The translations under genes and the position numbers were made by a program. Below, in pieces: positions 39,766 through 59,468 of a stretch of DNA of 64,000 nucleotides (position 1 is its first letter; the number at the start of each line of letters is the position of its first letter). Under the pieces are notes generated by a model. The model worked only from the letters and a program-made list of their open reading frames with translations, was not told where the DNA came from and did no database searches. Source of the DNA: an uncultured Thermoanaerobaculia bacterium (GTDB lineage: Bacteria > Acidobacteriota > Thermoanaerobaculia > Multivoradales > JAGPDF01). The stretch lies in assembly GCA_964471955.1 (NCBI GenBank), contig CAYYIK010000007.1, positions 2,729-66,728 of the forward strand, read 5' to 3'.

Positions 39766-41189
39766 TCCAGCAGCGCCACCGCATCACCGCGGCGGTCCTC
39801 TTCGCGGGGGACGTCGTCGCAACGCTGGCCGCCTTCTTCGGCGCCTGGCTCCTCCGTTTCGAAGTCGAACTCGTTCCGCTGACCAAGAGCACGCCGGAGC
39901 TCGGCCGCTACGTCGAGCTGCTGCCGATCATCCTGCTGCTCTTCCCGCTGGTCTTCTACTTCCTCGGCCTCTACCGGCCGCGGCCGAGCGCCAGCCGGGT
40001 CGAGGAGGCGGTGGCCGTCCTCTCGGCGGTGCTGCTGGCGACCATCCTGCTGTCGGGCGTCGTCTCCTGGTACCGGCCGGCGCTGCGCCCCGGCAGCATC
40101 GAGTACTTCACCTACAGCCGCGCCTTCCTCGCCCTCTTCGCGGTGGTCCAGGTGGCGATGGTGGTGCTCGGCCGGGCCGCGGTGCGCTGGTTGCTGCACA
40201 GCGCCAGCGTCCACGCCGGCAGCGCGCAGCGCATCCTGGTGGTCGGCGCCGGCAAGCTCGGCCTCGAGATCACCTCCAAGCTGCTCGCCCACCGCGACCA
40301 CGGCCTCGAGGTCGTCGGCTTCCTCGACGACGACCCCAACAAGCTCGGCCGGCAGATTCTCGGCCGACCGGTGCTCGGCATGACGCGCGACGTCGAACGC
40401 GTCCTCGCCGAGCAGAAGATCGACCAGCTCTTCGTCGCCCTCCCCCTCGAAGCCCACAAGAAGATGATGCGCCTGCTGCAGGCGGTGGGCAGCGAGTGCG
40501 TCGAAGTCAAGCTCGTCCCCGACATCCTGCAGTACGCGACGATCAAGGCGACGCTCGAGGAGATCGACGGCACGCCGGTGATCAACCTCTCGCAGCTGCC
40601 GCTGCAGGGCTGGAACAGCCTGGTCAAGCGGCTGCTCGACGTCGTCCTGTCGGCCGCCGGCCTGGTGGTGCTGCTCCCGTTCTTCCCGCTGCTGGCGCTG
40701 ATCATCTGGCTCGACGACCGCGGCCCGATCTTCTACCGCCAGGAGCGCATGGGCCTCGACGGCCGCCCCTTCTGGATCTGGAAGTTCCGCTCGATGCGAG
40801 TCAACGCCGAGGCCTCCACCGGGCCGATCTGGGCCATCCAGGGGGATCCGCGGCGCACCGTCGTCGGCGGCGTGCTGCGCCGCTGGTCGATCGACGAGCT
40901 GCCGCAGCTGTGGAATGTGCTGCGCGGCGACATGTCGCTGGTCGGTCCCCGCCCCGAGCGCCCGACCTTCGTCCAGGAGTTCAAGCAGCGCCTGCCGCAG
41001 TACATGCTGCGTCACAAGGTCAAGGCCGGAATCACCGGCTGGGCCCAGGTGCACGGCTGGCGCGGCAACACCTCGATCCGCAAGCGGCTCGAGTACGACC
41101 TCTACTACATCGAGAACTGGTCGCTGGGGCTGGATCTGAAGATCCTCTGGATGACGCTCCGGCACGGCCTGCGCCACAACGCCCACTGA
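39762..41189 (+). CDS. undecaprenyl-phosphate sugar phosphotransferase (WbaP/EpsB-type priming glycosyltransferase)
   Basis: TTG overlapping the previous stop (TTGA); N-terminal TM helices; C-terminal bacterial sugar transferase domain GPIFYRQERMGLDGRPFWIWKFRSM...DELPQLWNVLRGDMSLVGPRP. Confidence 0.85.
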   Translation: MIQQRHRITAAVLFAGDVVATLAAFFGAWLLRFEVELVPLTKSTPELGRYVELLPIILLLFPLVFYFLGLYRPRPSASRVEEAVAVLSAVLLATILLSGVVSWYRPALRPGSIEYFTYSRAFLALFAVVQVAMVVLGRAAVRWLLHSASVHAGSAQRILVVGAGKLGLEITSKLLAHRDHGLEVVGFLDDDPNKLGRQILGRPVLGMTRDVERVLAEQKIDQLFVALPLEAHKKMMRLLQAVGSECVEVKLVPDILQYATIKATLEEIDGTPVINLSQLPLQGWNSLVKRLLDVVLSAAGLVVLLPFFPLLALIIWLDDRGPIFYRQERMGLDGRPFWIWKFRSMRVNAEASTGPIWAIQGDPRRTVVGGVLRRWSIDELPQLWNVLRGDMSLVGPRPERPTFVQEFKQRLPQYMLRHKVKAGITGWAQVHGWRGNTSIRKRLEYDLYYIENWSLGLDLKILWMTLRHGLRHNAH

Positions 41190-46328: not shown

Positions 46329-47543
46329 TCAGGACTTGCTCTCGCGCGAGCGGGGGAAGAAGTCGCCGAGGGCACCGAAGCCGCCGGGAGCAGGGGTCGC
46401 GCCGGCGGACTCGCCGGCCGCCCCCTCCTCACCGCCGCGCGCCAGCGCCAGGGAGATGCGACGCGTCTCGGGCGAAATCGAGAGCACGGTCACCTCGACC
46501 TGCTGGCCGGCCTTCAGCACGTCGCGGGCGTGACGGATCTCCCGCTTGCCGAGCTCGGCGAGCTCGGAGACGTGCAGCAGGCCGTCGACCCCCGGCGCCA
46601 GCTCGACGAACGCGCCGAAGCTCTCGAGCCGCGCCACCCGCCCGCTGCGCCGCGCGCCCGGCTCCAGCTTCGCCGCCTCGCCGAGCCACGGATCGGGCGT
46701 CAGGGCGCGGCGCGACAGCGAGATCCGCTCCCGCCCCCGCGCGTCGGGCGGCGCGATGGCGAGGATCTGCACTTCGACCTCGTCGCCGATTCGCAGCACC
46801 TCCTGCGGATGCTCGATCCGCCCGTGGCCGAGCTCGGAGACGTGCAGCAGCCCCTCGAGGCCGCCGAGGTCGACGAAGGCGCCGTAGGAGGCGAGCGAGG
46901 TGACGGTGCCGCGCACCGTCTTGCCGACCTCGATGCGCGCCCGCGCCGCCTCGGCCTTCGCCTTCGCCTCCTCCTCGAGCAGCGCGCGGCGCGAGAGGAC
47001 GAGGTTCATGCCGCGGCCGCGCCCCTCTTCGAGACGGGTGATGCGGAAGTCGAGCCGCTGGCCGACCCAGGTCGACGGATCCTCGACGTAGCGGCTGTCG
47101 AGCTGCGAGATCGGACAGAAGGCGCGCTGTCCGGAGACCGAAACCTCGACGCCCCCCTTGACCACCGCCTGGACGACACCGGCCACCGGCAGGCCATGCT
47201 CGTACGCCTGCTGCAGCTCGGCGGGCGCCGCCGGGCCGCGTCCGGCGCGCACCCTCAGGACGGCCACGTCGTCCTCGATCGACGCCACCACCCCCTCGAC
47301 GACGTCACCCACCGCGACGGTGACGATGCCTTCGTCGTCGGTGAGCTGGGTGAGTGGAATCACCCCCTCGGCCTTGCCCCCCAGGTCGACGAAGACCGAC
47401 TCCTCCCCCACGCCGACGACGCGGGCGCTCACCCGCTCGCCCACCGCCGGCGGCGCCTTGCGGGTCTCGGCCTGCCGACTCTCGAACGCTGCGAGGATGG
47501 CGGCGAATTCGCCGTCTCCGGAATCTCCAACGCGACGCTTCAT
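46329..47543 (-). CDS. S1 RNA-binding domain protein (four S1 repeats, ribosomal protein S1-like)
   Basis: Start MKRRVGDSGDGEFAAILAAFE; four G-x-V-x-G-x-V S1 repeats each ending ...HVSEL/ISQL. Confidence 0.8.
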   Translation of the reverse strand: MKRRVGDSGDGEFAAILAAFESRQAETRKAPPAVGERVSARVVGVGEESVFVDLGGKAEGVIPLTQLTDDEGIVTVAVGDVVEGVVASIEDDVAVLRVRAGRGPAAPAELQQAYEHGLPVAGVVQAVVKGGVEVSVSGQRAFCPISQLDSRYVEDPSTWVGQRLDFRITRLEEGRGRGMNLVLSRRALLEEEAKAKAEAARARIEVGKTVRGTVTSLASYGAFVDLGGLEGLLHVSELGHGRIEHPQEVLRIGDEVEVQILAIAPPDARGRERISLSRRALTPDPWLGEAAKLEPGARRSGRVARLESFGAFVELAPGVDGLLHVSELAELGKREIRHARDVLKAGQQVEVTVLSISPETRRISLALARGGEEGAAGESAGATPAPGGFGALGDFFPRSRESKS

Positions 47544-47652
47544 GGGGAACTCCCGCCCGGCGGCCGCAGCACCGGACCGCGGTGCGCGATCGGGGGAGCC
47601 GCCGGTAGCGCCATTGTAGCGGCGGGCGCGTGTCGGCAAGTAGGATCGGCAG

Positions 47653-47961
47653 GTGGAAGCCGCCGACTTTCTCCCGCTGCTCGGTAGCCGGTTCCAGGTC
47701 GACCGCTCCGGCCCTACGATCCACCTCGAACTCGTCGAGGTACGACGCTCGCCGCCGGGCAGCGAGGCCGAGGCGCGGCACCGTGCCGCCGCCGGCATCC
47801 GGGAAGAACCGTTCACCCTGCTCTTTCGCGGCCCGCGCGACACTCCCCTCGACCAGCGGATCCATCGCCTCGAGCAGGACCGGCTGGGGACGCTCGAGAT
47901 CTTTCTGGTACCCGTGCGGCCCGACGACCGGGGGCCTCTTTACGAGGCGGTCTTCAACTGA
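47653..47961 (+). CDS. small hypothetical protein (102 aa)
   Basis: Protein-like composition (MEAADFLPLLGSRFQVDRSGPTIHLELVEV...); divergent from the S1-domain gene; no family assigned. Confidence 0.45.
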   Translation: MEAADFLPLLGSRFQVDRSGPTIHLELVEVRRSPPGSEAEARHRAAAGIREEPFTLLFRGPRDTPLDQRIHRLEQDRLGTLEIFLVPVRPDDRGPLYEAVFN

Positions 47962-48454
47962 CCGGACGCCATTCGAGGAGCCGGTAGACCTCGCCCGCCG
48001 CGCCGATCTCGCGGAAGCCGAGTCGGTCGTACAGGGCGCGCGCCGGATTGAAGCGCTCGACGTGGATGGTCAGAGGAACCCCGACGGCTCCGGCCTCGCG
48101 TTGAAGGTCTCCGATCAGGCGGGTTCCGGCGCCGAGCCGGCGGAACCCGGGGAGCAGCGCGATGTCGACCAGCCGGATCTCTGCCGGCCGTCGATCGACA
48201 TAGAGGCGCCCCGCGGCATGGCCGTCGATTTCGACGACCTGGAAGCTGCACCCGGGATACTGCAGCCGCCACCAGCGATCCTGCGCCTCGAACTGCTGGC
48301 GCAGAAACGCCTCTTTCTGCGCCGCCGTCCACGCGACCGGCGCGAGTTCCTCGGCTCGGGTAGAGGCGTAGACGCCGAAGAGGAACTCCCGATCCGCAGC
48401 CGTCACCGGCCGCAGCGCCAGCGACGCCTTCGGCTCAGGCCTCGTCGCCGACAC
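47954..48454 (-). CDS. GNAT family N-acetyltransferase
   Basis: 166 aa; acetyl-CoA binding motif A (VDIALLPGFRRLGAGTRLIGDL); C-terminal YDRLGF. Confidence 0.8.
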   Translation of the reverse strand: MSATRPEPKASLALRPVTAADREFLFGVYASTRAEELAPVAWTAAQKEAFLRQQFEAQDRWWRLQYPGCSFQVVEIDGHAAGRLYVDRRPAEIRLVDIALLPGFRRLGAGTRLIGDLQREAGAVGVPLTIHVERFNPARALYDRLGFREIGAAGEVYRLLEWRPVS

Positions 48455-49220
48455 TCTCGACAGTCATCACCAGCGAGGCGAGCGCCGCGGGAAATGGCTC
48501 CTCCTCCCCTGGCAGGTACCGCTCCAGGTCCCAGGCCCCCTCGGTGAGGCCGAGGAAGTAGACGCCGGCCTGGAGTCGTGGCACGCCACCTTCCTTGCCC
48601 AGAGTGAGCCTGGCCCGGCGCCGGACTCCCGAGTCCGGGATCGCCGTTCGATCGGTCGGCCGCCGGTCGCCGGCCGCCCCGTCAACGCGCACTTCGAGCA
48701 CCAGCGGGTCGTACTCGTCGAGCCAGCTGCGGAACCGGATCGGCGACGACGCACCAGAGGCTCTCCGGTAGCTCCAGGCGTGGAACGGGAGCTGTCGCCC
48801 CAGCTCGTCACGCACCAGGACGTCGAGATCGATCTCCCGCGGCGGTGTCACGCCGCGCTCCGGACCCGCGAGGAGGCCCTGGACGCGGATCCGGACGCTC
48901 CCTGCGGCGAGTCGCGGGTCGCCTGCCGGCAGCGAGAAGGCGGGCACGACGATCGACTCGGCCGCGAACGGCCGCTCCTCGTCCGCCTCGAGCGGCACCG
49001 ATACGGGCCACCGCGGTGTCGCGAGTGCGTCGCTGCCCAGCAGGTAGCCGACGGAGAGGGCCGCAGCGGCAGCCGTTTCTCTCTTCGTCGTGGCGGCCAG
49101 CGCCCAGCCGGGCGACAGCGCCAGTGCCCCTCCGGCGACCAGCAGCTCGCGCCGGCCGAACGGCGTCGAAACCCACGCCGGTTCGTGTGAAGACTTCGCC
49201 CTGCGTTCCTCGTGGCTCAA
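48435..49220 (-). CDS. hypothetical protein with probable Tat signal peptide
   Basis: TTG start overlapping the methyltransferase stop (TTGA); (M)SHEERRAKSSHEPAWVSTPFGRRELLVAGGALALSPGWALAA has twin-arginine plus hydrophobic core. Confidence 0.5.
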   Translation of the reverse strand: MSHEERRAKSSHEPAWVSTPFGRRELLVAGGALALSPGWALAATTKRETAAAAALSVGYLLGSDALATPRWPVSVPLEADEERPFAAESIVVPAFSLPAGDPRLAAGSVRIRVQGLLAGPERGVTPPREIDLDVLVRDELGRQLPFHAWSYRRASGASSPIRFRSWLDEYDPLVLEVRVDGAAGDRRPTDRTAIPDSGVRRRARLTLGKEGGVPRLQAGVYFLGLTEGAWDLERYLPGEEEPFPAALASLVMTVESVGDEA

Positions 49221-49786
49221 GATCCACTCCTCGGCGGCGAGGCCGCCTCCGGCTCCGGCGGCGCCCCGACCCGCCAGAGCCGGATCGTCCGCGGCGTCCC
49301 GTCGCCGTCGACGAAGCGCTCGGTGCGCGCCGGCTCCGGGGACTTCAGAGCGAAGCTGTGGGAGACGATGCGCGTCCCCGCCGGCAGCTCCGCGATCAAC
49401 CGATTGCCGATCCGTTCGGTCGACCACTCGACCAGGTAGAGAGTGATGACCGTCGCCTCGCGCGGAACCAGGTCGCTGGCGTCGCGGACCTCGAAACGGG
49501 TGCTCGCCGCGACGCCGGCCCGCTCGGCCTCCTCGCGGGCCCGCTCGACCCAGAACGGCTCGACGTCGTAGCCGATTCCGCGCGCGCCCCGGCGCGCCGC
49601 CGCGATCACGATCCGGCCGTCGCCGCAGCCGAGATCGCAGACGACGTCGTCCGCGCCGACCTCGGCCAGGTCGAGCATCCGTTCCACGACCTCGGGCGGC
49701 GTCGGCACGTACGGAGCCAGCACGTAGCGTGGAGCGACCGGTCCGTTGTCCGGTGTGATCGAGTCTGCGACGGCGGCGATCGTCAT
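49217..49786 (-). CDS. class I SAM-dependent methyltransferase (small, ~190 aa)
   Basis: Motif I VCDLGCGDGRIVIAAARRG; motif post-I/II (GYDVEPFWV...ATVITLYL). Confidence 0.75.
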   Translation of the reverse strand: MTIAAVADSITPDNGPVAPRYVLAPYVPTPPEVVERMLDLAEVGADDVVCDLGCGDGRIVIAAARRGARGIGYDVEPFWVERAREEAERAGVAASTRFEVRDASDLVPREATVITLYLVEWSTERIGNRLIAELPAGTRIVSHSFALKSPEPARTERFVDGDGTPRTIRLWRVGAPPEPEAASPPRSGS

Positions 49787-49787
49787 C

Positions 49788-50309
49788 TCAGGTCCGCGGC
49801 GGGAAGACGCCCTGCAAGGCGATCGCGAAGTAGCACGTCAGGTACGGCTGCATGTTGTTGTGCGGCTGGTCGCCGCCGCCAGGAGCCAGGGCCTGGTCCG
49901 ACGCGCTCGCGTTCGGAGACGCCTGATACAGAGCTCCTCCGCCGGAGAGTGCGAAGGACGCAGAGGCGCTCGCAACATTGGTGTCGGCCAGGTCGACGAC
50001 GTTGGCGCGCAGAGTGTGGGAATGCGCGGGAATCTCCGATTGAAGGAGCGAAACCGTCTCGCTGCCTCCCGTCTCCCCCAGGTCGTGCAGGGACAATCCC
50101 GGGCCTTGTCCCGGCTGCATCGGTGCGCGACCCTGAAGGTCCGGCAGTGCGAAGTTGCTCTTGCCGTTGCCTCCGTATGTCGTGCCGAGCAGCGAAAAGA
50201 GCGCCGTATTCTGCGACAGGGGAAGAAGCTGCCCGTCGCACCACGCCCAGCCCTTCGGGGCGAAGTTGAACGGGAAGATCCGGATCTCAGCGACGAAGGG
50301 ATCTGCCAT
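49788..50309 (-). CDS. phage tail collar domain protein (MdpB-like), paralog 1
   Basis: MADPFVAEIRIFPFNFAPKGWAWCDGQLLPLSQNTALFSLLGTTYGGNGKSNFALPDLQGRAP matches the tail-collar family signature. Confidence 0.85.
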   Translation of the reverse strand: MADPFVAEIRIFPFNFAPKGWAWCDGQLLPLSQNTALFSLLGTTYGGNGKSNFALPDLQGRAPMQPGQGPGLSLHDLGETGGSETVSLLQSEIPAHSHTLRANVVDLADTNVASASASFALSGGGALYQASPNASASDQALAPGGGDQPHNNMQPYLTCYFAIALQGVFPPRT

Positions 50310-50321
50310 GACGTCTCACTC

Positions 50322-50825
50322 TCAGGCCGGGCTCGGGAAGATTCCGAACAACGAAATGATGAAATTGACGCAGAGATAGGGCTGGAAGTTCGTGTGCGGC
50401 TGGCTGCCGCCCGTCGACCCGATCGCCGCAGCATTCATGTTTCCGCTCGGAGCGTCGTTGATGTACGGGGTGACGTTGAAGGAGTTCGCCGGGAGATTGC
50501 CCGAAGCGTTGATCTGGTCCCCGGTAACTCCGGCGGCGAGCAGCGGATGGCCGTGCGCCGGAATCTGCTGAATCGTGAGCGTGATCTCCTCCGCGCCTCC
50601 GGTCTCCGCGAGGATGAATCCGCTCCCCTGATGAATCGGAATCCGCCCGCGCAGGTCGGGCAGCGCGAAGGTGGACTGCCCGTCGCCTCCGTAGGTGGTG
50701 CCGATCAACTGGAACAACGTCTCGTTCTCCGAGATCGGCAGCAGCTGACCCTCGCACAGCATCCAGCCTGCCGGCGCGAAGTTTCCGCCGAACATCCGGA
50801 TCTCTCCAACGTAAGGTTGCGCCAC
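50322..50825 (-). CDS. phage tail collar domain protein, paralog 2
   Basis: MAQPYVGEIRMFGGNFAPAGWMLCEGQLLPISENETLFQLIGTTYGGDGQSTFALPDLRGRIP. Confidence 0.85.
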   Translation of the reverse strand: MAQPYVGEIRMFGGNFAPAGWMLCEGQLLPISENETLFQLIGTTYGGDGQSTFALPDLRGRIPIHQGSGFILAETGGAEEITLTIQQIPAHGHPLLAAGVTGDQINASGNLPANSFNVTPYINDAPSGNMNAAAIGSTGGSQPHTNFQPYLCVNFIISLFGIFPSPA

Positions 50826-50835
50826 GACGGCCTCC

Positions 50836-51336
50836 TCAGTTCGGGCTCGGGAAAATGCCCTGGAGGGCGATACAGAAGCTGATCGTGAGGAACGGCTGCA
50901 TGTTCAGATGCGCCTGGCTTCCTCCGACGGCGGTCACGGTGGCGGAGCTCATGGCGACCAGGGATGCCGGCGCGTGGTAAGCGTTGTTGGCCCCTCCGAG
51001 GACCCTTCCCGCCGGATTCACGTTGCCGCCGGTCGAGGCCGAGGAGACCGCCAGCACATGCACGTGTTGCGGCATCTCCGCGATCGACAAGGTGTGGGCC
51101 TGCTCTCCCCCGCGCTCACCGAGCGTGTGCGCCGATCCGACGTGAATCGGGGCGCGCCCGCGCAGGTCGGGCAGCGCGAAATTGACGCGGCCGTCGCCGC
51201 CGAAGGTCGTTCCCAGGAGAGAAAACAGGGCCTGGTTCTGATTGATCGGCAACAGCTGGCCGTTGCAGAGGGCCCAACCCTTGGGAGCGAACTGGAAGCT
51301 GAACAGTCGAACTTCGCTCAGGAACGGTTCGGCCAT
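50836..51336 (-). CDS. phage tail collar domain protein, paralog 3
   Basis: MAEPFLSEVRLFSFQFAPKGWALCNGQLLPINQNQALFSLLGTTFGGDGRVNFALPDLRGRAP; RBS GAGAGGAAG upstream. Confidence 0.85.
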   Translation of the reverse strand: MAEPFLSEVRLFSFQFAPKGWALCNGQLLPINQNQALFSLLGTTFGGDGRVNFALPDLRGRAPIHVGSAHTLGERGGEQAHTLSIAEMPQHVHVLAVSSASTGGNVNPAGRVLGGANNAYHAPASLVAMSSATVTAVGGSQAHLNMQPFLTISFCIALQGIFPSPN

Positions 51337-51372
51337 GGTCTTCCTCTCATCCGCGACTCGTGCACCAGCGCG

Positions 51373-54300
51373 TCACGGCAGCGGGCAGGCAGCGCCGCCC
51401 GGGGTATTGACGAAACCGCCGCCCGTAGGCACGGTATTCGACGCGATCGCCGAGGGCACTCCGTCTCCCGAGTTCCGCGCGATCAGGTAGTTCTGGACCG
51501 CGGTGTTGTCGTTGTTGGCGCCCGCGTATCCGCGCAGCGCAACGGTCGTCGCCTGCCGCTGGCGGAGTCGGATGTCTTCGCCTCCCGCCGGAATGTCGCT
51601 GGGCGCGCCCGCGGTCGAAACCGAGTTCTGGAGAGCCCCGGCTCCGCCCGCGTCGAGGCAGATCTGGTAGGTGTCTCCGGGCACTGTGCCGGCGTTCAGG
51701 TGAATCCCGTTCTTCGGGATCGAAGCGGTGGCCGGATTGGTACCCGGAAGCGTGATCAGATTGCCCGTGATCGTGGCGTTCAGGGCGCCGGGCTGCGCCG
51801 TCGCCCCGCCGCCAGTCAGCAGCTCGATGCCGAAGTTGTTGTACCAGCGGATCGTGTTGCCGCTGATCAGCGCGTCGATCGCCCCCTGGCCGACGCTCTG
51901 GATTTTGAGCGCCGATCCCTCCAGCGATCCGGAGTTGGGCGTCGCGGCCGCGCCGATCGTATTTCCCTGGAACGTCAGATCGAGGCTGCCCACGCCGGTC
52001 GGCTTGACGATCAACACCGCCGGCCCGACCGCGTCGCGGAAGCTGTTGTTCTGAACGACGAACGTGTCCGAGCTCGTGGCGCCGGCGAAGAAGGAAACTC
52101 CACCGCCGCCCGTCGCGATTCCGCCGTGGTTGTTGCTCAGCGTATTGCCCGTGAAGGCGAAGGTGAAGGCGCCGTTCGAGTTGTTGTTGACCTGGATCAG
52201 GTCGCCACGGGCGGACGTGAAGGCTCCATTCTGGACGGTGACGTTCATCGTCGCGCCAGCCGAACCGAGAGTCTCGAAGTAGGCCCCGTCGTTGCCGTCG
52301 GACAGGCTGTTGGCGCCGATCGTGACCCCGGAGAGAGTCACCGTGAGCGCTCCAGCGGTGTTGACGATCCTGAGATTGTCTTCGAAACCGCCGCTCACGT
52401 TGCAGTTCGTGAAGGTCGCCGTACCGGTCAGCTCGCTGAACCGGATACTCCCCTCGTCCGCCGCGGCGCTGTTGCCGTTGACGCCGTTGACGACGCTGTT
52501 GTCGAGGTTGAAACCCGTGACGGAAGCGCCGCGAATCGCGAAGTCGCCGAAGTCGTCGAGCTGCATCCAGGAGAACGACGGGTTCAGCGTGCTGGTGAGC
52601 GAGATACCGGTGCTCGTCGCGTTCCGAATCGTGCCGCCGGTCGCGGCCGAGCCCGTTCCGGAGACGATGAGCCTGCCTGCACCTCCCGTCGCATTGAGGA
52701 TCAGGCCGTTGGCCGGATCAGCAGCGGCCGTCGCATTTCCCGAGCTGATCGACCGGAAGCTCAGGTTCGAGGTCCCGATCGGCGTGCTGGTCACCCGCAA
52801 TGCGGTCGCGCTGACCGAGTCGATGGTGTTGATTCCGGTGATGTTCAAACCGAGCGCGTTGGTGTTGCTGGTCGCCGCGAAGCCCTCGCCGGTGGTGGTG
52901 TCGATGTCGAGTCCGCCGCTGAAGGTGATCGCCCGGCTGCCGGCGTTGCCGTTGAGCAGGATGCCGGCGCCGTTCTCGTCGACGGCGCCCGAGAGCAGCA
53001 AGTCGTCGCTCGCGTCGTCTCCGGCCCAGGTCGTGATCGAGACGGCTCGCGCCGTCGCCGAGTTGTTGGTGATCGTCCCGGCGTAGTTGATGCGGCCGTT
53101 GCCACCGCTGACGTTGAAAGCGGGTCCGGCCGCTCCCGCCGCGGTCGTGATCGTGCTGCCGGCGCCGGCGGTGAACTGGGCGTCGAAAGCCGGATTGATC
53201 GCGTCGAGCACCGTCGCCAGCGAGACGCCCGTCGTCGTCGTGTTCGTGCTCCGAATCGTGGTCAGCGGCAGCGAGGCGGTCAGGTTGGAAAGGTCGACCG
53301 CCGGACCGCCCGTCGCTTCCGCCATCCCCACGCCCGCGCCCACCGACACGCGCGTACCCGTTCCCGCACCGACGTTCACGGCGCCGGTGCCGCTGACGCG
53401 GATCGCGGCGCCGTTGTCGGCGAAGACGTCGAGGTCGGTGAAGGCGAGGTCGCCCGAGACGTTGGTCAGAACCAGACCGCTCGCGCCGACGCCGTTGCCC
53501 GGCGCGCCGACCACCGTGGCGCCGCCCGCGACCTGCTGATAGGCGCCTCCCGGCGTGGCGTCGAGCGTCAACGGACCCGTGAGCACCAGGCCCGAGCCGC
53601 CGGTGTTGCCGGAGACCACGTTGTCGTCGAAGGCCGTGACCTGAACGGTGCCGTTGGTCCTCGCCACGTCGAGGCCGGTGCCGCCGGCGGTGATGCTGTT
53701 GTCGTGGATCGAGAGCGTCAGCGTCCCGGTGCCGCCGGCGTTGACGTCGATCCCCTCGGCACCGGAGGCACGCACGGTGTTGTTCGCGATCGTCAAAGCG
53801 CCCGACCCGCCGAAGGCGCCGGTGAGCGTGACGTCGACGGCGTTCGCGTTGCCGGCCAGATTCAGGCCGACGATCTCGGTCGGGATCAGATCGGTGGCCA
53901 TCACCGCGCTGCCGCCGACCGTGGTGTTGTCGAGCATCGGCCGGGTACCCGGTGCGATCAGCACGACGGGCGAGGCACCGCCGTTCAGCACGACCGGGAT
54001 CGAGAGCCCCGCCCCTTCGCCCACCAGATGCTGACCCGCCTTGAGCGTGATGCCGGCGTTCTGCCCGGTGGTGGCGCCGTCGCCGTTGTAGACGAAGATC
54101 CAGTCGTTGGCACCCGAGGCGGTCTGCGCTTCGACCAGGGTGTCGAATGGATCGATCGAACGTCCGAGACCGCCGGCGGTCGCGTCGTTGCGGACGTACC
54201 AGACCCGCTGGAGGAACGAAATCGTCACCGTGCCCTGGACGCTCACGTCGCCGTCGGAGACGTTGTACGTGAAGCTGTCGTCGACCGTTCGCCCGGCCGG

Positions 54301-56514
54301 CGACGTGTAGCTGAACGTGCCGTCCGAGGCGACCGCGACCACCGCGCCGGCGGTCGCCGTACCGAGCGACGTGGTCAACGCCGCCGGGCCGTCCGGATCG
54401 CTGTCGTTGGCGAGCAGGTTCCCCGCCGCGAAGACGTAGGGACCGTTCGCGTCCGGCCCGGGATCGATTGCCGCGACCCGCAGCCGGGTGTTCGAAATCG
54501 TCTGGAACGACTCGCCGGTGATCACCGGAGGATCGTTGACCGGCGTAACGGTGACGCTCTTCGACGCCGTGTTGCTCGGATCGGCGCCGTCGTTCGCGAC
54601 GAAGGTGACGAGGCGGTCCGGCAGGGCCGTCGGGCTCTGGGAAGCGTTGGCGTAGAGGACCGAGCGCAGGCAGCCCTGGTAGACCGCGACCGTCGCCGTT
54701 CCCGAGATCGCCAGCGCGTGGCCCGGCGCGGAGACGACGAGGCCCGGGCAGGTTGTGCCCGGCGCAGCGACCGAGAGCGCCTCCTGGCCGCCGTTCTGCG
54801 GATTCGTCAGCGACACGATCGCCGAGACGAGATCCGCGTCGTCGGCGTCGGTGACGTTCAGCGCACCGTCGACCACCACCGCGCCGGCGTCTTCGACGAA
54901 CGAGGTCGCGCCGCCGCTGGTTGTGACCACCGGTACATCGTTGACCGCGGTGATCTCGACCGTCGACGTCGCGGCGGCGCTCGACTCGACGCCGTCGCTC
55001 GCGCTCCAGGTTACCGTGCGGTCGGACGGGTCGGGATCCTCCGAGCTGTTCTCGTAGGCGACCGAGCGCAGCGCCGCCTGCCAGGCAGCGACGGTATCGA
55101 GTCCGTTCAGGGCGAGGGTGCCGGTCGCCGGCGCGAAGACGCCGGTGATGCTGGGCGTGTTCGTGAACGACAGGACGTCTTCCCCGCTCTGGAAGTTGCC
55201 GGTGATCTGCACCGTCGCCGAGACCAGATTGGCGCTGTCGACGTCGCTGACCGTGAGCGCGGCGTCGACCGCGGTCGGCGGATCGTTCTCGGTGTAGGCG
55301 AGCGTGCCGCCGGCGACGACGACCGGCGGCGCGCGGTCGATCACGATCCGGGCGCGGGCCGTGGCCGGGCCGATCGGCGCGCCCGAGGCGTCCACCGTCG
55401 GGTCTCCCGCCGCCGCGGCGATCGTGTAGGCGAAGTCGTCGACGCCGTTGAAGCCGGCCGGCGGCGTGTAGACGAAGTGCCCGTCGGCGGCGACGTCGAC
55501 GCTGCCCCCCTGGCTGGTTGCCTGCCCCGCCGCCGGCACCGCGGCGAGCGAGTCGCCGTCCGGATCGGTGTCGTTGCCGAGCAGCGCGGGCAGCGCCGCC
55601 GTCGAGCTGTCGATCGGCTGGTCGGTGACCGTCCGGTAGACGTCGGGTCGTGCCAGCGGCGTCGTGCGCACCGAACCGGCGACCAGCGCCAGATTGGAGT
55701 CGAGGATGTCCGCGAGCTCGACGCCCGTGGCGCCGCCACCGGCGTTCGAGATCGTGATCCGGTAGCGAATGGTGTCTCCCGGCACGACCGCGCCGGGAAT
55801 CGGATCCCCGGCCGGCGTGCGGTCGACCTTGAGCGCCGCGAGTTCGGGAGCCGCCGTGCGCAGCTCCGAGAGCATCAGCGCCGGCGTCGCTTCCCCCGAC
55901 TCGACGCGAAGGACGATCGCGCCCACCGCGGAGAGATCCGCCGGCGTCGCCGCGCCGGGCGCCTGCGCCAGGCTCGAGAAGTCGACGAAGATGTCGACGG
56001 GAGCCGCGATCGCCGGCAGGACCAGGGCGCCGCGCGACACCGAATCGGCGTCCTCGTAGATCTCGAGCACCAGGGAGGTGCCCGCCGCCGCCGCGTCGAT
56101 GGTGAAACGGAAGGCGCCCGCGCCGCCGGCGGTCAGGTCGACGCCGCCCAGCCCGGCCGGGTCGATCGCGTCGGGGTCGCTGTCGCCGTCCCAGATCACG
56201 AAGACCGCACCGCGCGAGTCGGGCGTGGTCGCGGTGACGCCGACGTCCAGCGCGCCGCCCGCCACGCCGGCGGTGACCGGCCCCGCTCCGGCGAAGCGTT
56301 GCACCCGCAGTCCGCGGTTCTGACCGAGGATGTCGGCGCCGCCGGTGACCGCGTTGCTGGCGCCGCCGGGCGGATCCGAGATCACGGTCTGGTTGGTCGT
56401 GAACTGATCGACGACGACCTGGCCGGCGACCGGTGCGGCGGCCAGGACCAGTCCGGCGACGAGTGCGGCGAGCGCGGCGGGCCGTCGCGGCGAGGGTCTC
56501 ATGGCGCCTCTCAT
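51373..56514 (-). CDS. giant (1713 aa) secreted protein: N-terminal DUF11-like and cadherin-like/VCBS-type domains followed by extensive right-handed parallel beta-helix repeats
   Basis: ATG overlapping the upstream DUF11 gene stop (ATGA); signal peptide MRGAMRPSPRRPAALAALVAGLVLAAAPVAG; repeated ...VNDVPVV/VNDPPVI... cadherin-like boundaries; long G/T/N/A-rich beta-helix region. Confidence 0.8.
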   Translation of the reverse strand: MRGAMRPSPRRPAALAALVAGLVLAAAPVAGQVVVDQFTTNQTVISDPPGGASNAVTGGADILGQNRGLRVQRFAGAGPVTAGVAGGALDVGVTATTPDSRGAVFVIWDGDSDPDAIDPAGLGGVDLTAGGAGAFRFTIDAAAAGTSLVLEIYEDADSVSRGALVLPAIAAPVDIFVDFSSLAQAPGAATPADLSAVGAIVLRVESGEATPALMLSELRTAAPELAALKVDRTPAGDPIPGAVVPGDTIRYRITISNAGGGATGVELADILDSNLALVAGSVRTTPLARPDVYRTVTDQPIDSSTAALPALLGNDTDPDGDSLAAVPAAGQATSQGGSVDVAADGHFVYTPPAGFNGVDDFAYTIAAAAGDPTVDASGAPIGPATARARIVIDRAPPVVVAGGTLAYTENDPPTAVDAALTVSDVDSANLVSATVQITGNFQSGEDVLSFTNTPSITGVFAPATGTLALNGLDTVAAWQAALRSVAYENSSEDPDPSDRTVTWSASDGVESSAAATSTVEITAVNDVPVVTTSGGATSFVEDAGAVVVDGALNVTDADDADLVSAIVSLTNPQNGGQEALSVAAPGTTCPGLVVSAPGHALAISGTATVAVYQGCLRSVLYANASQSPTALPDRLVTFVANDGADPSNTASKSVTVTPVNDPPVITGESFQTISNTRLRVAAIDPGPDANGPYVFAAGNLLANDSDPDGPAALTTSLGTATAGAVVAVASDGTFSYTSPAGRTVDDSFTYNVSDGDVSVQGTVTISFLQRVWYVRNDATAGGLGRSIDPFDTLVEAQTASGANDWIFVYNGDGATTGQNAGITLKAGQHLVGEGAGLSIPVVLNGGASPVVLIAPGTRPMLDNTTVGGSAVMATDLIPTEIVGLNLAGNANAVDVTLTGAFGGSGALTIANNTVRASGAEGIDVNAGGTGTLTLSIHDNSITAGGTGLDVARTNGTVQVTAFDDNVVSGNTGGSGLVLTGPLTLDATPGGAYQQVAGGATVVGAPGNGVGASGLVLTNVSGDLAFTDLDVFADNGAAIRVSGTGAVNVGAGTGTRVSVGAGVGMAEATGGPAVDLSNLTASLPLTTIRSTNTTTTGVSLATVLDAINPAFDAQFTAGAGSTITTAAGAAGPAFNVSGGNGRINYAGTITNNSATARAVSITTWAGDDASDDLLLSGAVDENGAGILLNGNAGSRAITFSGGLDIDTTTGEGFAATSNTNALGLNITGINTIDSVSATALRVTSTPIGTSNLSFRSISSGNATAAADPANGLILNATGGAGRLIVSGTGSAATGGTIRNATSTGISLTSTLNPSFSWMQLDDFGDFAIRGASVTGFNLDNSVVNGVNGNSAAADEGSIRFSELTGTATFTNCNVSGGFEDNLRIVNTAGALTVTLSGVTIGANSLSDGNDGAYFETLGSAGATMNVTVQNGAFTSARGDLIQVNNNSNGAFTFAFTGNTLSNNHGGIATGGGGVSFFAGATSSDTFVVQNNSFRDAVGPAVLIVKPTGVGSLDLTFQGNTIGAAATPNSGSLEGSALKIQSVGQGAIDALISGNTIRWYNNFGIELLTGGGATAQPGALNATITGNLITLPGTNPATASIPKNGIHLNAGTVPGDTYQICLDAGGAGALQNSVSTAGAPSDIPAGGEDIRLRQRQATTVALRGYAGANNDNTAVQNYLIARNSGDGVPSAIASNTVPTGGGFVNTPGGAACPLP

Positions 56515-59468
56515 GGCACGACGGCGCTCCAGCGCGAGGTATCGCCCGTCTCGAATCCGTCATTGAACAGCAGCGGCGAGGGCCGCACGTAGAGCTGATC
56601 GAAGTGCGCGGTAAACAGGGCGTCCGTGGTTGTCCTGGCCTCGATCGTCCAGCGAGCCGAGGCGGTGCCGGCGGGCGCCCGCTGCGGGTCGACCAGTTCG
56701 AGCCAGGCTCCGGCCGAGTCGAAGAACGGCTGGGCGACTTCGACCGAACCCGCCGTTCCCGTGCAGCCGGCGCCGGTGAAGTACTCGACGCGTCGCGCCA
56801 CGGTCACCGGCGTGCCGGCGCTGGCGGCGATCCGCACGCGGGTCACCAGCTCATAGTCGGCGGCGACCAGCGGCGTGCACTGGGCGACGGAGAATTCCGA
56901 CGGACCCTGCGGCGGGCCGAGCAGCGGATCGATCCGCAGCGCCCCCGAGACCGGCGCGTCGTCGAGGTCGACGGCCGGATCGTGGATCACGTCGCCGGTG
57001 CCCTCGGGCGTCGCCTGCCAGGCCCGCAGGTCGCAGTCGAAGTGGCCGTTGAGCAGGCGATTGCCCGCATCGATCCGGAATCCGAGCTCGTGCTCGTCGT
57101 CGCCCGAGGGGGTCGAATCGCCGTCGAGCGGGTTGCCCGCGACGTCCTCGAGCGTCGGGCAGACCAGCAGCCGGTAGGGGCGGTCGCCGAGCGCTTCGCC
57201 GAAGGTCACGGTCGCGACCGACGGAGAAGCCTGATAGACGACTGCGGTGGCGTCGATCGCCACGTCGTCGCCGGCCGGTGGCCCGCACAGCGCGGTCGAG
57301 AACGCGCCGTCGGGACCGGTCGCGAACAGCCGGTAGTTGTCCGGGTTGGTGACGTCCTCGGGGTCGGCGTCGCCGGCCGGATCGGCCATCTCCTCGCTGA
57401 ATTCGAGCGCGAGCGCGGTCGGCGTGGCGAGCACCGTGTCGCACTCCGCGATCTCGCCGTCGGGGCTCGCGGGGACCGAGTCGACGATCACGATCGTCGG
57501 TGCGGTGAGGTCGAGCGCCACCGTCTCGCAGTCGTCGTTGTCGCCCGGGACCGGGTCGGGCCCGTTCGAGCCGTCGTCGGCGATCGAAGCGCAGTTGTCG
57601 ATCTCGGTCGTGCCCGGCGGCAGCGGGTCGTCGAGCTCGACGGCGAAGACGGCGATGCCCGCGCCGCCACCGCCATCGAGAGATCCGATCGCCAGATCAC
57701 AGGCGGTGCCGGCGGGTGCACCGTCGGCGCACGACCAGCCGGCGGTCGAGGCCGCGGCGTCGAAGGTGGTGTCGACCGGCACCGTCTCGGACAGGACGAC
57801 GCCGACAGCCGTCTGGTTGCCGGCGTTCGAATAGGCGAGATCGAAGGCGATCGTGTCACCCGGGAACGGCACGCCGCCCGAATAGCTCTTGACAATCGCC
57901 AGGTCCGGCGCGGCTTCGATCGGCGTGGAGTCCTCGGCGCCGTTGTCGCCCGGGTTCGGGTCGGCACCGTTGGCGCCGTCGTCGGCCACGCTGGCGACGT
58001 TGACCACCTCGCTGACGCCGGCGGGCAGCGGCGTCTCGACTTCGACGGCGAACGTCGTCGAGCCGCTCCCCCCGCCCGCCACCGCACCTACCGCGTACGT
58101 GCAGGCGGTGCCCTCGGGCGAGCCGTCCGGGCACGACCAGCCGGGCGTCGAAGCCGCGGCGTCGAAGACCGTGAACGGCGGCACGAGCTCCGACAGTACG
58201 ACGCCGGTCGCCCCCTGGTTGCCGCCGTTCGACCAACCAAGCGCGTACGGGATCGTGGAACCAGGAGTCGACGTGATCCCGCCGTCACTCTTGGTCAGCG
58301 CGAGGTCCGGCTGGGCGTCGACAGGCGTGGTGTCCGAGGCCGAGTTGTCGCCGGGATTCGGATCGGCGCCGTTGACGCCGTCGTCGGCGATCGAGGCCGT
58401 GTTGGCGATCTCGGTGACGCCGGCGGGGACCGGATTCGCGACGGTAACCGCGAAGGTCGCCGAGCCCGAGGCGCCGCCGCCGACGAGCGAACCGACCGCG
58501 AGCGTGCAGACCGCGCCCGGATTGCCGTCGGGGACGCACAGCCAGCCGGCCGTCGACGCGCCCGGGGCGAAGACCGCGTTGGCCGGAACGGTCTCGCTGA
58601 GCGTCACGCCGGTCGCCTCCTGATTGCCGTCGTTGGCGTAGGAGAGGACGTAGGCGACGGTCGCGCCCGGGACCGCCGAGATTCCGCCGTCGCTCTTGGC
58701 CAGGGTCAGGTCGGGCGCGGCGTCGACCGGAGTGGTGTCGGTCGAGCTGTTGTCGGCCGGCGTCGGGTCGGCGCCGTTGGCACCGTCGTCGGCGATCGTC
58801 GCCGTGTTCGAGATCTCGTCGAGCCCCGCCGGCACCGGCGAGTCCACAGTGACCGCGAAGGTCGCCGAACCCGCAGCGCCGCCGCCGGCGAGCCCGCCGA
58901 CCGTCAAGTTGCAGACCGACCCCGGGTTGGCGTCCGGAACGCAGATCCAGCCCGCGGTCGAGGCGCCGGCGTCGAAGGTGGTGCTCGCGGGCACCACTTC
59001 GCTCAGCGTCACGCCGCTCGCCGCCTGGTCGCCGTCGTTGGCGTAGGCGAGCAGGTAGGCGACGGTTCCGCCCGGAACGACCGAAACGCCGCCGTCGCTC
59101 TTGGCCAGGCTGAGATCCGGCTGGGCAACGACCGGTGTGAGGGTCGGGTCCTGGGCGCCCGGCTCGCCGGGATCGTCCGTGAGCAGCGTGGCGGCGTTGG
59201 TCGCCTGGATGGTCGCCTGATTGGTCACCTCGACGACTCCGGCCGGCAGCGGCGTGTCGACGGTCACCAGGAACTCGATGGTGACCGCGCTGCCTGCCGG
59301 CAGGATGCCGATCGACGTGTCCTGCGCCCACGCGGTCGCGGCGGCGCCGAAGGCCGCGCCTGCGATCAGCCATCTGCGAAGCCACGCGTGCCGCGAAACC
59401 AACCGCTCGCTCCTTCCGTCGACGACGGGATGCGGACGCAGCATAGAGACTCCGCAGGCGCGATACAA
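56511..59468 (-). CDS. secreted DUF11 (conserved repeat domain) protein with C-terminal jelly-roll/CBM4_9-like domain and the shared C-terminal tail motif
   Basis: At least four tandem ~125-aa repeats each beginning PDL(S/T/A)L(A/T/V)KSDGG...; C-terminal domain LLNGHFDCDLRAW...; ends ...LLFNDGFETGDTSRWSAVVP. Confidence 0.8.
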   Translation of the reverse strand: MYRACGVSMLRPHPVVDGRSERLVSRHAWLRRWLIAGAAFGAAATAWAQDTSIGILPAGSAVTIEFLVTVDTPLPAGVVEVTNQATIQATNAATLLTDDPGEPGAQDPTLTPVVAQPDLSLAKSDGGVSVVPGGTVAYLLAYANDGDQAASGVTLSEVVPASTTFDAGASTAGWICVPDANPGSVCNLTVGGLAGGGAAGSATFAVTVDSPVPAGLDEISNTATIADDGANGADPTPADNSSTDTTPVDAAPDLTLAKSDGGISAVPGATVAYVLSYANDGNQEATGVTLSETVPANAVFAPGASTAGWLCVPDGNPGAVCTLAVGSLVGGGASGSATFAVTVANPVPAGVTEIANTASIADDGVNGADPNPGDNSASDTTPVDAQPDLALTKSDGGITSTPGSTIPYALGWSNGGNQGATGVVLSELVPPFTVFDAAASTPGWSCPDGSPEGTACTYAVGAVAGGGSGSTTFAVEVETPLPAGVSEVVNVASVADDGANGADPNPGDNGAEDSTPIEAAPDLAIVKSYSGGVPFPGDTIAFDLAYSNAGNQTAVGVVLSETVPVDTTFDAAASTAGWSCADGAPAGTACDLAIGSLDGGGGAGIAVFAVELDDPLPPGTTEIDNCASIADDGSNGPDPVPGDNDDCETVALDLTAPTIVIVDSVPASPDGEIAECDTVLATPTALALEFSEEMADPAGDADPEDVTNPDNYRLFATGPDGAFSTALCGPPAGDDVAIDATAVVYQASPSVATVTFGEALGDRPYRLLVCPTLEDVAGNPLDGDSTPSGDDEHELGFRIDAGNRLLNGHFDCDLRAWQATPEGTGDVIHDPAVDLDDAPVSGALRIDPLLGPPQGPSEFSVAQCTPLVAADYELVTRVRIAASAGTPVTVARRVEYFTGAGCTGTAGSVEVAQPFFDSAGAWLELVDPQRAPAGTASARWTIEARTTTDALFTAHFDQLYVRPSPLLFNDGFETGDTSRWSAVVP
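57520..59170. repeat. intragenic tandem repeats (~375-bp period) encoding the DUF11 repeat units
   Basis: Protein-level repeats AQPDLSLAKSDGG / AAPDLTLAKSDGG / AQPDLALTKSDGG / AAPDLAIVKSYSGG each followed by ...PG.T..Y.L...N.G.Q.A.GV.LSE.VP; boundaries approximate. Confidence 0.55.

Follow-up and report, generated by a model that had tools for sequence, protein, structure and literature searches.

Collar proteins in known systems

Three consecutive collar proteins of the virophage DSLV2 co-purify as a 1:1:1 heterotrimer that binds Synechococcus cells, with lipopolysaccharide as the receptor inferred from docking (PMC12724248). The trimer has a conserved collar and a variable head. Its genes are viral, with capsid genes as neighbours, and the trimer's proposed location is on the capsid (PMC12724248). 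The locus described here is found in a 64,000-nucleotide stretch of DNA from an uncultured Thermoanaerobaculia bacterium (the window). Compared by description, it resembles DSLV2 in its row of three small collar-domain genes, each with orthologues specific to its position. In contrast to DSLV2, the window triplet is cellular, is located beside a giant exported protein together with a GNAT acetyltransferase and a DUF6916 protein, and is far more conserved across hosts. The first-pass annotation of the window considered collar proteins to have no established function, a view that needs qualification in light of the cell-binding DSLV2 heterotrimer (PMC12724248).

The collar domain is also common to the T4 short fibre gp12 (PDB 1OCY), the T4 long fibre gp37 and the minor tail proteins of actinophages, such as gp43 of Microbacterium phage Quhwah. 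These tips also have in common with the window proteins an HxH metal motif and a C-terminal QPxL-type strand, with 37-39% identity over about 150 residues. They are however homotrimers that usually cap a long shaft and are encoded in tail modules, whereas the window set consists of three shaftless paralogues with no virion gene in the vicinity.

Outside prophages, the same Pfam family and the same COG (COG4675, "microcystin-dependent protein") include RhiB of the Rhizobium rhiABC genes and MrpB of Microcystis. RhiB differs in being a single gene in the quorum-sensing-controlled rhiABC(D) operon; neither an rhiABC(D) context nor a luxI/luxR-type gene recurs around the triplets. In tailocins and in the trimeric fibre adhesins of Bdellovibrio, phage receptor-binding modules were recruited by cells for surface recognition. 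A PilV-collar fusion in a conjugative pilus shufflon is another re-use of this kind (PMC9881135). Each of these modules has a defined carrier to which it is fused or on which it is assembled: a pilin, a contractile tail or a trimeric shaft. The window tip, by contrast, stands alone as a three-paralogue set, and its linked neighbours are a monomeric giant protein with a beta-helix and an acetyltransferase. No description of this cassette was found in the literature.

Organization of the locus

Eight consecutive genes on the minus strand (47954-59468) are joined by short overlaps or gaps, and a ninth gene converges on them:

56511-59468, minus strand: DUF11-repeat exported protein (CLIPPER), 985 aa, TTG start; ATGA overlap with the next gene at 56511-56514
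51373-56514, minus strand: giant protein, 1713 aa; 36-nt gap to COL1
50836-51336, minus strand: collar protein COL1, 166 aa; 10-nt gap to COL2
50322-50825, minus strand: collar protein COL2, 167 aa; 12-nt gap to COL3
49788-50309, minus strand: collar protein COL3, 173 aa; 1-nt gap to the methyltransferase gene
49217-49786, minus strand: methyltransferase, 189 aa; TTGA overlap with the next gene at 49217-49220
48435-49220, minus strand: Tat-signal protein, 261 aa, TTG start; 20-nt overlap with the GNAT gene at 48435-48454
47954-48454, minus strand: GNAT acetyltransferase, 166 aa
47653-47961, plus strand: DUF6916 protein, 102 aa; 8-nt overlap with the GNAT gene

On one side the predicted operon meets the convergent DUF6916 gene, on the other a divergent plus-strand ORF (about 59504/59573 to 60208). 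The same genes were called independently on identical public contigs, except that the DUF11 start differs by 8 codons (ATG at 59444, giving 977 aa). A longest ORF of 330 aa (48435-49427) was rejected as a gene; the calls in relatives correspond to the 261-aa version starting in the TTGA overlap. A consensus scan of the operon found no internal promoter or terminator, although such a scan says little at 72% GC. As the first-pass annotation had it, the eight genes, with all their overlaps and gaps, match the ORF layout, and Pfam confirmed every one of its domain calls. Its unit was correct for the minus strand but missed the conserved DUF6916 partner on the plus strand.

The collar triplet

Each of the three proteins contains a Collar domain (PF07484) with E values of 1e-27 to 1e-29 (COL1, 4.4e-28; COL2, 2.4e-29; COL3, 3e-27), and two of them have weak matches to Gp10_C (COL3, E = 4.4e-6). 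COL1 consists of the collar domain followed by a head region with the HxH motif; COL2 and COL3 are about 50% and 52% identical to it. Residues 8-156 of COL1 account for the 37-39% identity to actinophage minor tail proteins, and COL1 matches phage tail families in PHROGs. Structure matches of the collar proteins include 1ocy and the solved long tail fibre 8kec, with whose HxH the collar HxH aligns. Each protein is a complete minimal phage tail-fibre tip, composed of a collar domain, an HxH, a variable head and a conserved C-terminal strand. No signal peptide was found in COL1, COL2 or COL3.

The three proteins are under strong constraint. COL1 has more than 8000 homologues, and the 120 that were listed, from several phyla, share 78-97% identity. 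Among related loci, median identity to the window copies is 74.7% for COL1, 74.0% for COL2 and 76.0% for COL3; since the 80 loci were picked as closest to COL1 the first value is inflated, but the other two are not in the same way. The same measure gives 49% for GNAT, 39% for DUF6916 and 36% for the giant protein. The sequence constraint on the collar proteins is far stronger than on their neighbours, and this extreme conservation, about 75% identity to the window copies, had been overlooked in the first reading of the locus. Conservation is mostly 80-95% or better over residues 1-93 and again over roughly the last 30. The HxH does not vary in any of the three paralogues, and each protein has about 40 residues (approximately 94-137) that are hypervariable. 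A collar protein is present in the exoproteome of Ruegeria pomeroyi (PMC4949626), and COG4675 proteins were detected in a soil metaproteome (PMC5579227).

Spread and linkage of the cassette

A relative of COL1 is encoded in at least 569 species genomes. In the best 80 of these it is 69-82% identical to the window copy, the hosts being Acidobacteriota, Verrucomicrobiota, Actinomycetota, Chloroflexota, Bacteroidota, Gemmatimonadota, Alpha-, Beta- and Gammaproteobacteria and one "delta proteobacterium". Cultured strains that carry it include Aminobacter aminovorans KCTC 2477, Mesorhizobium sp. WSM4083 and Dyadobacter sp. LHD-138. The neighbourhood check proposed in the first-pass annotation gave a positive result: in the genome scan, the triplet, the giant exported protein and GNAT are conserved together in at least 8 phyla. 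The methyltransferase occurs only in near-identical relatives. Plasmids of Deinococcota raise the count for triplet plus giant to at least 9 phyla; the Deinococcus version (62% identity) is without GNAT or DUF6916.

Linkage was assessed in those 44 related loci whose flanks extend for at least 5 kb on either side. All 44 contain the triplet in the fixed order COL1-COL2-COL3, and in all 44 an ORF of more than 1,600 aa adjoins it. This ORF is a homologue of the window's giant in 33; the remaining 11 have a different one. GNAT is present in 42 of the 44 and DUF6916 in 41. The giant lies directly upstream of the triplet, on the same strand and within 300 bp, in 36 loci. In one locus (L046) giant and triplet are duplicated as a unit, with a single GNAT/DUF6916 pair shared between the two copies, and in another (L044) a giant precedes two of the three triplets.

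Partner proteins

The giant protein begins with a Sec-type signal (residues 1-32) and a variable domain, followed at about 230-770 by DUF11/Big_9/cadherin-like repeats (Big_9, Cadherin_4 and Cadherin_5, E = 1e-17 to 1e-19). Its C-terminal part is a right-handed beta-helix of about 900 aa ending in a conserved cap with two invariant cysteines. Homologues carry RTX or SLH domains. The signal peptide, these RTX/SLH homologues and the cap cysteines are the reasons for taking the giant as extracellular.

GNAT (Acetyltransf_1, E = 8e-11, with a weak RimI-like match in NCBIfam) and DUF6916 (Pfam, E = 1.5e-26), a small beta-barrel, are conserved members of the cassette. Their genes are adjacent almost everywhere in the related loci and are naturally fused in one case (P0343). 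Neither GNAT nor the short DUF6916 has a detected signal peptide. In at least 31 of 80 loci the cassette includes a protein with a canonical twin-arginine signal. The 261-aa version in the window, which has no match in Pfam, NCBIfam, PADLOC or PHROGs, has homologues only in Acidobacteriota-type loci, all with an RR motif followed by a hydrophobic stretch. It occupies the operon position held in other phyla by a Tat-signal long DUF6916 form, to which it has no detectable kinship (hhalign probability below 1%).

Two proteins of the locus, the methyltransferase and the DUF11 protein, are local additions. The former belongs to class I families (Methyltransf_31/25/11) and is most like archaeal SAM-dependent protein-lysine methyltransferases, its match to NF041081 (E = 8.5e-23) being under the curated cut-off. 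It is confined to the near-identical relatives (L005-L007, L088-L090) and absent from all 80 scan loci; it is a lineage-specific insertion and not, as had been thought, part of the conserved system. The DUF11 protein, with four repeats (E = 2.5e-46) and an N-terminus, RRWLIAGAAFGAAATAWA, that resembles a signal peptide, had likewise been counted as a member. DUF11-type giants occur only in some related loci, making it an occasional neighbour and a lineage-level accessory outside the conserved core.

A proposed surface binding module and its alternatives

Judged from sequence, there is about an even chance that the triplet is a domesticated phage receptor-binding tip and that it forms, together with the exported Ig-repeat/beta-helix giant, a module for binding at the cell surface. 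The tie to a surface protein, as first suggested, is the most economical reading. By analogy with DSLV2 and the T4 fibres, COL1, COL2 and COL3 probably form a 1:1:1 metal-stapled heterotrimer. Its symmetry would be pseudo-threefold, with six histidines, one HxH per chain, holding an axial metal ion as in gp12 and gp37. The hypervariable loops would form the distal ligand-binding face, the ligand probably being a glycan, and the invariant collar face would dock on a conserved partner, for which the disulfide-capped C-terminal end of the giant is the best candidate. Trimer and giant would then act outside the cell in adhesion or recognition, and GNAT and the short DUF6916 would be accessories that jointly act on some component of it in the cytoplasm. 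That the collar proteins or the giant are post-translationally modified is pure conjecture.

The weakest step is export. Because the collar proteins have no signal peptides, the folded trimer may leave the cell riding on a Tat-signal partner; in the window this would be the 261-aa protein, and in other phyla the long DUF6916 form. No such partner was seen in the majority of loci, so Tat hitch-hiking cannot be general. Gene adjacency alone is no proof of physical interaction, nor is any case known in which a monomeric beta-helix docks with a trimeric knob; both points count against the preferred reading, as does the lack of GNAT and DUF6916 in the Deinococcus version. Receptor-binding tips usually evolve fast; about 75% identity across phyla means that a conserved structural or enzymatic role fits at least as well as receptor binding.

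A cytoplasmic system has some chance, if a low one. The collar trimer, GNAT and short DUF6916 would then work intracellularly: as a sensor or decoy, say, or by acting on the giant pre-protein as its chaperone or in its quality control. The giant gene would be linked only by co-regulation. For proteins lacking signal peptides this is the simplest reading of the sequences, and it accommodates the GNAT-DUF6916 fusion, an extreme conservation atypical of exposed receptor-binding proteins and the lack of a Tat partner at most loci. However, the collar fold family is known solely from extracellular fibre tips, the loops vary in the manner typical of ligand-binding tips, exported partners recur (the giant always, the Tat-signal protein as counted above), one collar protein was found in an exoproteome, and no match to PADLOC defence models was obtained.

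Doubtful too, and slightly less probable, is a secreted polysaccharide-processing pair, in which the giant beta-helix would be a glycan lyase or hydrolase resembling a tailspike depolymerase and the collar trimer its targeting lectin, used in polymer foraging or biofilm-matrix remodelling and not in adhesion. Giant homologues carry the beta-helix family PF13229, and structures close to the giant's C-terminal model include phage tailspikes, polygalacturonases, and alginate and pectate lyases. Phages themselves employ tailspikes alongside collar-type fibres.

Three independent homotrimers, each paralogue forming its own tip with an alternative binding specificity, are improbable. Collar-type phage fibres, including T4 gp12, whose structure is among the matches, are homotrimers, and the paralogues share only about 50% identity with one another. 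Against this, all 44 full-flank loci keep the three genes in one order, the paralogues are equally and strongly conserved, whereas divergence or loss would be expected of alternative tips, and the virophage triplet was recovered experimentally as a heterotrimer (PMC12724248).

A tail-module remnant of a prophage or tailocin lying by chance beside a surface-protein gene, suggested by the phage tail matches and the actinophage identity of the collar proteins, is effectively refuted, in agreement with the initial view that this is not a prophage tail module: no other gene at the locus matches a phage family in PHROGs, phage genes do not recur among the 80 related loci, the flanks are housekeeping (rpsA, cstA, a Na+/H+ antiporter and a phytase-like gene), and the same cassette is retained across phyla under strong purifying selection.

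In the preferred explanation, which taken as a whole stands at roughly even chances, the window locus would be one copy of a horizontally spread chromosomal gene cassette.

Organization of the putative collar operon

The three phage tail collar paralogs (COL1, COL2 and COL3, the triplet) lie in a run of eight minus-strand genes that meets a plus-strand gene for a DUF6916 protein.

Genes of the operon and the adjoining plus-strand gene
56511-59468, minus strand, DUF11-repeat protein, 985 aa
51373-56514, minus strand, giant protein, 1713 aa
50836-51336, minus strand, COL1, 166 aa
50322-50825, minus strand, COL2, 167 aa
49788-50309, minus strand, COL3, 173 aa
49217-49786, minus strand, methyltransferase, 189 aa
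48435-49220, minus strand, Tat-signal protein, 261 aa
47954-48454, minus strand, GNAT, 166 aa
47653-47961, plus strand, DUF6916 protein, 102 aa (Pfam E = 1.5e-26)

The eight minus-strand ORFs have exactly the coordinates proposed in the first-pass annotation, and its junctions hold: an ATGA overlap at 56511-56514, gaps of 36, 10, 12 and 1 nt, a TTGA overlap at 49217-49220 and a 20-nt overlap at 48435-48454. Independent gene calls on identical public contigs contain the same genes, and Pfam upheld the assigned domains (DUF11, Big_9/Cadherin_4/Cadherin_5, three Collar, a class I methyltransferase and a GNAT). The DUF6916 gene, absent from the earlier gene list, is convergent with the GNAT gene and overlaps it by 8 nt; the operon therefore stops at GNAT. 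Upstream, it is bounded by an ORF of the plus strand, divergent from it, that runs from about 59504/59573 to 60208. A consensus scan of the operon for internal promoters and terminators found none above shuffled controls, a result that carries little weight because the GC content of the window is as high as 72%.

The longest rpsA ORF (46329-47843, minus strand, 504 aa) overlaps the DUF6916 gene. In the gene calls of identical and related contigs rpsA is 404 aa long, and its true start therefore lies near 47543 rather than 47843. With this start, rpsA and the DUF6916 gene are divergent and about 110 bp apart.

Conservation and spread of the cassette

COL1 has more than 8000 homologs; the 120 listed are 78-97% identical to it, and the named ones come from unrelated phyla. 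One genome was scanned for each species, and at least 569 species had a COL1 relative. The best 80 loci were analyzed by searching their six-frame ORFs with the window proteins.

Taxonomic distribution of the best 80 loci
Acidobacteriota, 27
Gammaproteobacteria, 12
Actinomycetota, 9
Verrucomicrobiota, 8
Alphaproteobacteria, 8
Bacteroidota, 6
Chloroflexota, 5
Betaproteobacteria, 2
Gemmatimonadota, 1
"Delta proteobacterium", 1
unclassified Pseudomonadota, 1

The first-pass annotation had asked for a test of whether the triplet, the methyltransferase, the GNAT and the giant protein form a conserved neighborhood. In the 44 loci flanked by 5 kb or more on each side, this was true of the triplet (44/44), the GNAT (42/44) and the giant homolog (33/44, with a different ORF of 1,600-3,300 aa beside the triplet in the other 11), and DUF6916 joined them in 41. 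It was not true of the methyltransferase, which was seen only in near-identical relatives (loci L005-L007 and L088-L090) and is not a member of the system. DUF11 proteins are occasional neighbors of the triplet in related loci. The order COL1-COL2-COL3 is invariable. The giant gene lies directly upstream of the triplet, on the same strand and within 300 bp, in 36 loci, and downstream in about 10. The cassette is found on chromosomes or megaplasmids. Together, these loci define a conserved non-prophage cassette in which the collar triplet is under exceptional constraint.

The constraint is evident from the median identities to the window copies: 74.7% for COL1, 74.0% for COL2 and 76.0% for COL3, with 49% for the neighboring GNAT, 39% for DUF6916 and 36% for the giant. 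Identities within and between phyla are equal (75.8 vs 74.5% for COL1, 46.8 vs 45.8% for GNAT), hence the history of the cassette departs from the species tree. This pattern points to horizontal spread under strong purifying selection. The three paralogs are about 50% identical to one another, and the triplication is therefore older than the spread. In the window, the GC3 of COL1-3, the 261-aa Tat-signal gene, GNAT and DUF6916 is 0.80-0.84, that of the methyltransferase, DUF11 protein and giant about 0.90, and that of the housekeeping neighbors 0.92-0.94. The lower GC3 of the core genes (47653-51336) hints mildly at a foreign origin or at special codon constraints.

The cassette also occurs in cultured bacteria. 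Plasmid pAA01 of Aminobacter aminovorans KCTC 2477 encodes a giant of 4158 aa, three "tail fiber protein" genes, a 494-aa hypothetical, a GNAT, a 91-aa hypothetical and SapC. Further carriers are Mesorhizobium spp., Dyadobacter sp. LHD-138, Comamonas antarctica, Tritonibacter and Ruegeria sp. TM1040. "Tail fiber protein" and "hypothetical protein" are the RefSeq names of the cassette genes. Deinococcus spp. have the giant and triplet only (62% identity), and this version, which has no GNAT or DUF6916, argues that giant plus triplet may be the older core of the cassette. On a plasmid of Deinococcus sp. KNUC1210 (L096, 6426-11561), a 1168-aa hypothetical protein accompanies the triplet, with no GNAT or DUF6916 gene nearby.

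Several variants were seen. In the alphaproteobacterial versions, COL3 and GNAT are separated by a 413-494-aa protein in which "DGR(V/I/L)..F" units are repeated, and a SapC-family gene comes after the cassette (Mesorhizobium sp. RCC_202, L063, 11406-12839 and 13811-14611; A. aminovorans pAA01, L095, 13602-15086 and 16092-16889). The sole match of the repeat protein is a sub-threshold FG-GAP-like one; it may be a β-propeller. A Gemmatimonadales locus (L044, 3538-13303) has three complete collar triplets in tandem, with a giant before two of them, and in Chiayiivirga (L046, 2-12362) one GNAT/DUF6916 pair is common to two giant-plus-triplet units. In a Thermoanaerobaculia genome (L001, 5184-6005), the genes for a 1665-aa DUF11/CARDB/GEVED protein and the β-helix giant flank one for a 273-aa protein whose IPTL-CTERM sorting motif is borderline.

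The collar triplet

COL1-3 match the Collar family (PF07484) with scores of 95-101 bits against a Pfam cut-off of 24. Each paralog has an HxH motif that is invariant among its approximately 70-85 orthologs and aligns with an HxH of a solved long tail fiber (8kec). The three share one conservation profile: residues 1-93 (collar plus HxH) and the last ~30 residues are mostly at least 80-95% conserved, and the ~40 residues after the HxH form a hypervariable stretch in all three. Actinophage minor tail proteins share 37-39% identity with the collar module. At the level of annotation, most of the close COL1 homologs among the matches listed carry the JGI name COG4675 ("microcystin-dependent protein").

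In T4 gp12 and gp37, the HxH motifs of three chains hold Zn or Fe on the fiber axis. By analogy, one HxH per paralog would create a six-histidine metal site in a heterotrimer.

Three database proteins (P0016, P0082 and P0015) contain COL1 and COL2 in one chain, by short-linker read-through or as a chimera at the common APAGW motif. These may be assembly or frameshift artifacts, or rare natural fusions.

The giant protein

The giant consists of a Sec-type signal peptide, a variable N-terminal domain, DUF11/Big_9/cadherin-like repeats and, in the window copy, ~900 residues with no Pfam match. Its homologs contain the right-handed β-helix family PF13229, and RTX repeats or an SLH domain occur in some; they are therefore extracellular, via several export or anchoring routes. 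Residues 1200-1700 are the region common to most loci. An AF2 model of the last 150 residues matches β-helix proteins. By sequence, the giant matched no enzyme family. The last ~70 residues contain a cross-phylum motif, RxRQR...LPGY.G...D..AV...F/Y...GGGF/Y...C-P, with two invariant cysteines, consistent with a disulfide in an exported domain.

The GNAT, DUF6916 and Tat-signal proteins

The GNAT is not close to characterized enzymes; its RimI-like and AAC(3)-like matches are weak, the former at 31 bits against a cut-off of 86. That a RimI-like GNAT might acetylate the collar proteins at their invariant Met-Ala N-termini is pure speculation. DUF6916 is a large family (at least 9033 clusters at 50% identity) whose best 150 representatives are nearly all standalone proteins of ~100 aa. 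It is modeled (pLDDT 90) as a small split β-barrel that has generic structural neighbors only. One JGI metagenome protein (P0343; L094, 434-1225) is a 263-aa GNAT-DUF6916 fusion, 47% identical to the window GNAT over its GNAT part; it supports a functional pairing of the two, with the proviso that it comes from a single 1.2-kb contig in which a sequencing error is possible. A GNAT toxin-antitoxin pair of the TacT/AtaT type was ruled out because the partner is a split β-barrel rather than a DNA-binding fold and the two genes are convergent in most loci.

DUF6916 proteins of the cassette fall into two classes, a short one with no signal and a long one (140-195 aa) that carries a canonical twin-arginine signal, [ST]RRxFL. 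A further protein (P0302, 237 aa) has two DUF6916 domains in tandem behind a Tat-like signal. The 261-aa protein of the window reads FGRRELLVAGGALALSPGWALA at its N-terminus, a twin-arginine motif followed by a hydrophobic stretch. Its homologs are confined to Acidobacteriota-type loci and all keep the RR and the hydrophobic run. It was considered as a divergent DUF6916, but hhalign gave a probability below 1%, and it is therefore treated as a DUF6916 analog by position only. When the long DUF6916 and the 261-aa family are counted together, at least 31 of the 80 loci have a Tat-signal protein in their cassette.

Genomic context

The first-pass annotation had argued that this is not a prophage, and this was borne out. 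COL1-3 are the only operon proteins that match phage families, the flanks have no phage genes, no further phage family recurs in the 80 loci, and the triplet is not encoded within a virion tail gene module; a prophage remnant is thus ruled out. The flanking genes are rpsA, cstA, a Na+/H+ antiporter, a phytase-like/EEP protein and a SpoIIE phosphatase. Clustering of every ORF up to 10 kb from the 80 triplets revealed no recurrent extra family or secretion system. PADLOC matched no defense system, except for the lineage-specific methyltransferase, which hit methyltransferase models, and the window has no match to an Rfam RNA family.

Just upstream of the cassette, 60260-63109 (minus strand) encodes a 949-aa protein with phytase-like esterase and endonuclease/exonuclease/phosphatase domains, and its synteny is kept in close relatives. 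Polysaccharide-synthesis genes lie at 35773-41189, 7-12 kb from the cassette; they encode a glycosyltransferase (GT4) and a priming sugar transferase (Bac_transf), and a related contig has a sulfatase gene in addition. The segment 32001-34000 has the peak GC of the window (78%), a strong AT skew (+0.245) and no ORF passing the codon-position filter.

Comparison with known collar systems

The closest described systems are a virophage triplet, phage fiber tips, RhiB/MrpB and other bacterial re-uses of fiber modules. In virophage DSLV2, three consecutive collar proteins co-purify as a 1:1:1 heterotrimer of ~55 kDa, which is fiber-like (~16 nm) and binds Synechococcus cells; docking pointed to lipopolysaccharide as the receptor (PMC12724248). 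The cassette resembles it in having three consecutive collar genes with position-specific orthology, each position in the related loci being 74-76% identical to the window copy. The virophage genes however adjoin capsid genes in a viral genome, whereas the triplet is chromosomal or on a megaplasmid. With the T4 gp12-type tip COL1-3 share the collar domain, the HxH after it and a conserved C-terminal strand, but the triplet lies outside a tail gene module. RhiB and MrpB are, like most of the close COL1 homologs listed, COG4675 by annotation. RhiB however belongs to a rhiABC operon with luxI/luxR-type regulators; such neighbors are absent from the window, and the 80 loci have no recurrent family of this kind. 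The literature searched contained no description of the cassette, and we regard it as a domesticated phage receptor-binding module that is new to that literature.

A possible mechanism

A mechanism can be proposed in six steps, given here in falling confidence. First, COL1-3 would assemble into a heterotrimer, a metal-stapled tip whose binding face is variable. Second, the triplet would be functionally coupled to the giant exported protein. Third, tip and giant would act extracellularly, in adhesion or recognition. Fourth, the collar trimer might dock on the conserved C-terminus of the giant. Fifth, the folded, signal-less collar complex might be exported by riding on the Tat-signal partner, a route suggested by the frequency of Tat-signal proteins in the cassettes (at least 31/80). 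Sixth, GNAT and DUF6916 might act on a component of the system.

A cytoplasmic role is the chief rival to the extracellular one, since five of the cassette proteins have no signals. A soil metaproteome (PMC5579227) and an exoproteome (PMC4949626) provide family-level evidence that collar proteins are real and abundant; it bears on the family as a whole and not on where this clade acts.

A bolder form of the extracellular reading is a long shot. It would be a cross-phylum apparatus, so far unrecognized, in which a phage-derived, metal-stapled heterotrimer, exported folded (with the Tat partner where present), anchors or targets giant β-helix/Ig adhesins and binds a surface glycan, with GNAT and DUF6916 controlling assembly. 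The glycan would be the producer's own or that of a neighboring cell. If this is true, giant surface proteins would be displayed independently of sortase, type I, type V and type IX secretion signals. There is a modest chance that the cassette is a distinct new surface-display system.

Significance

Non-prophage collar proteins (COG4675, RhiB, MrpB) have been without a function for ~30 years. The cassette can be recognized in any genome by a giant exported protein, an ordered collar triplet, a GNAT and a DUF6916, and its cultured carriers in Aminobacter, Mesorhizobium, Dyadobacter, Comamonas and Ruegeria/Tritonibacter should permit genetics. The constraint, together with the single hypervariable patch, turns the label "tail fiber protein" into testable hypotheses on heterotrimer assembly, metal binding, the partner protein and the route of export. 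Should the cassette prove to be a surface-display or recognition device, it would bear on adhesion biology in soil and the rhizosphere and would be a clean case of bacterial domestication of a phage receptor-binding module.
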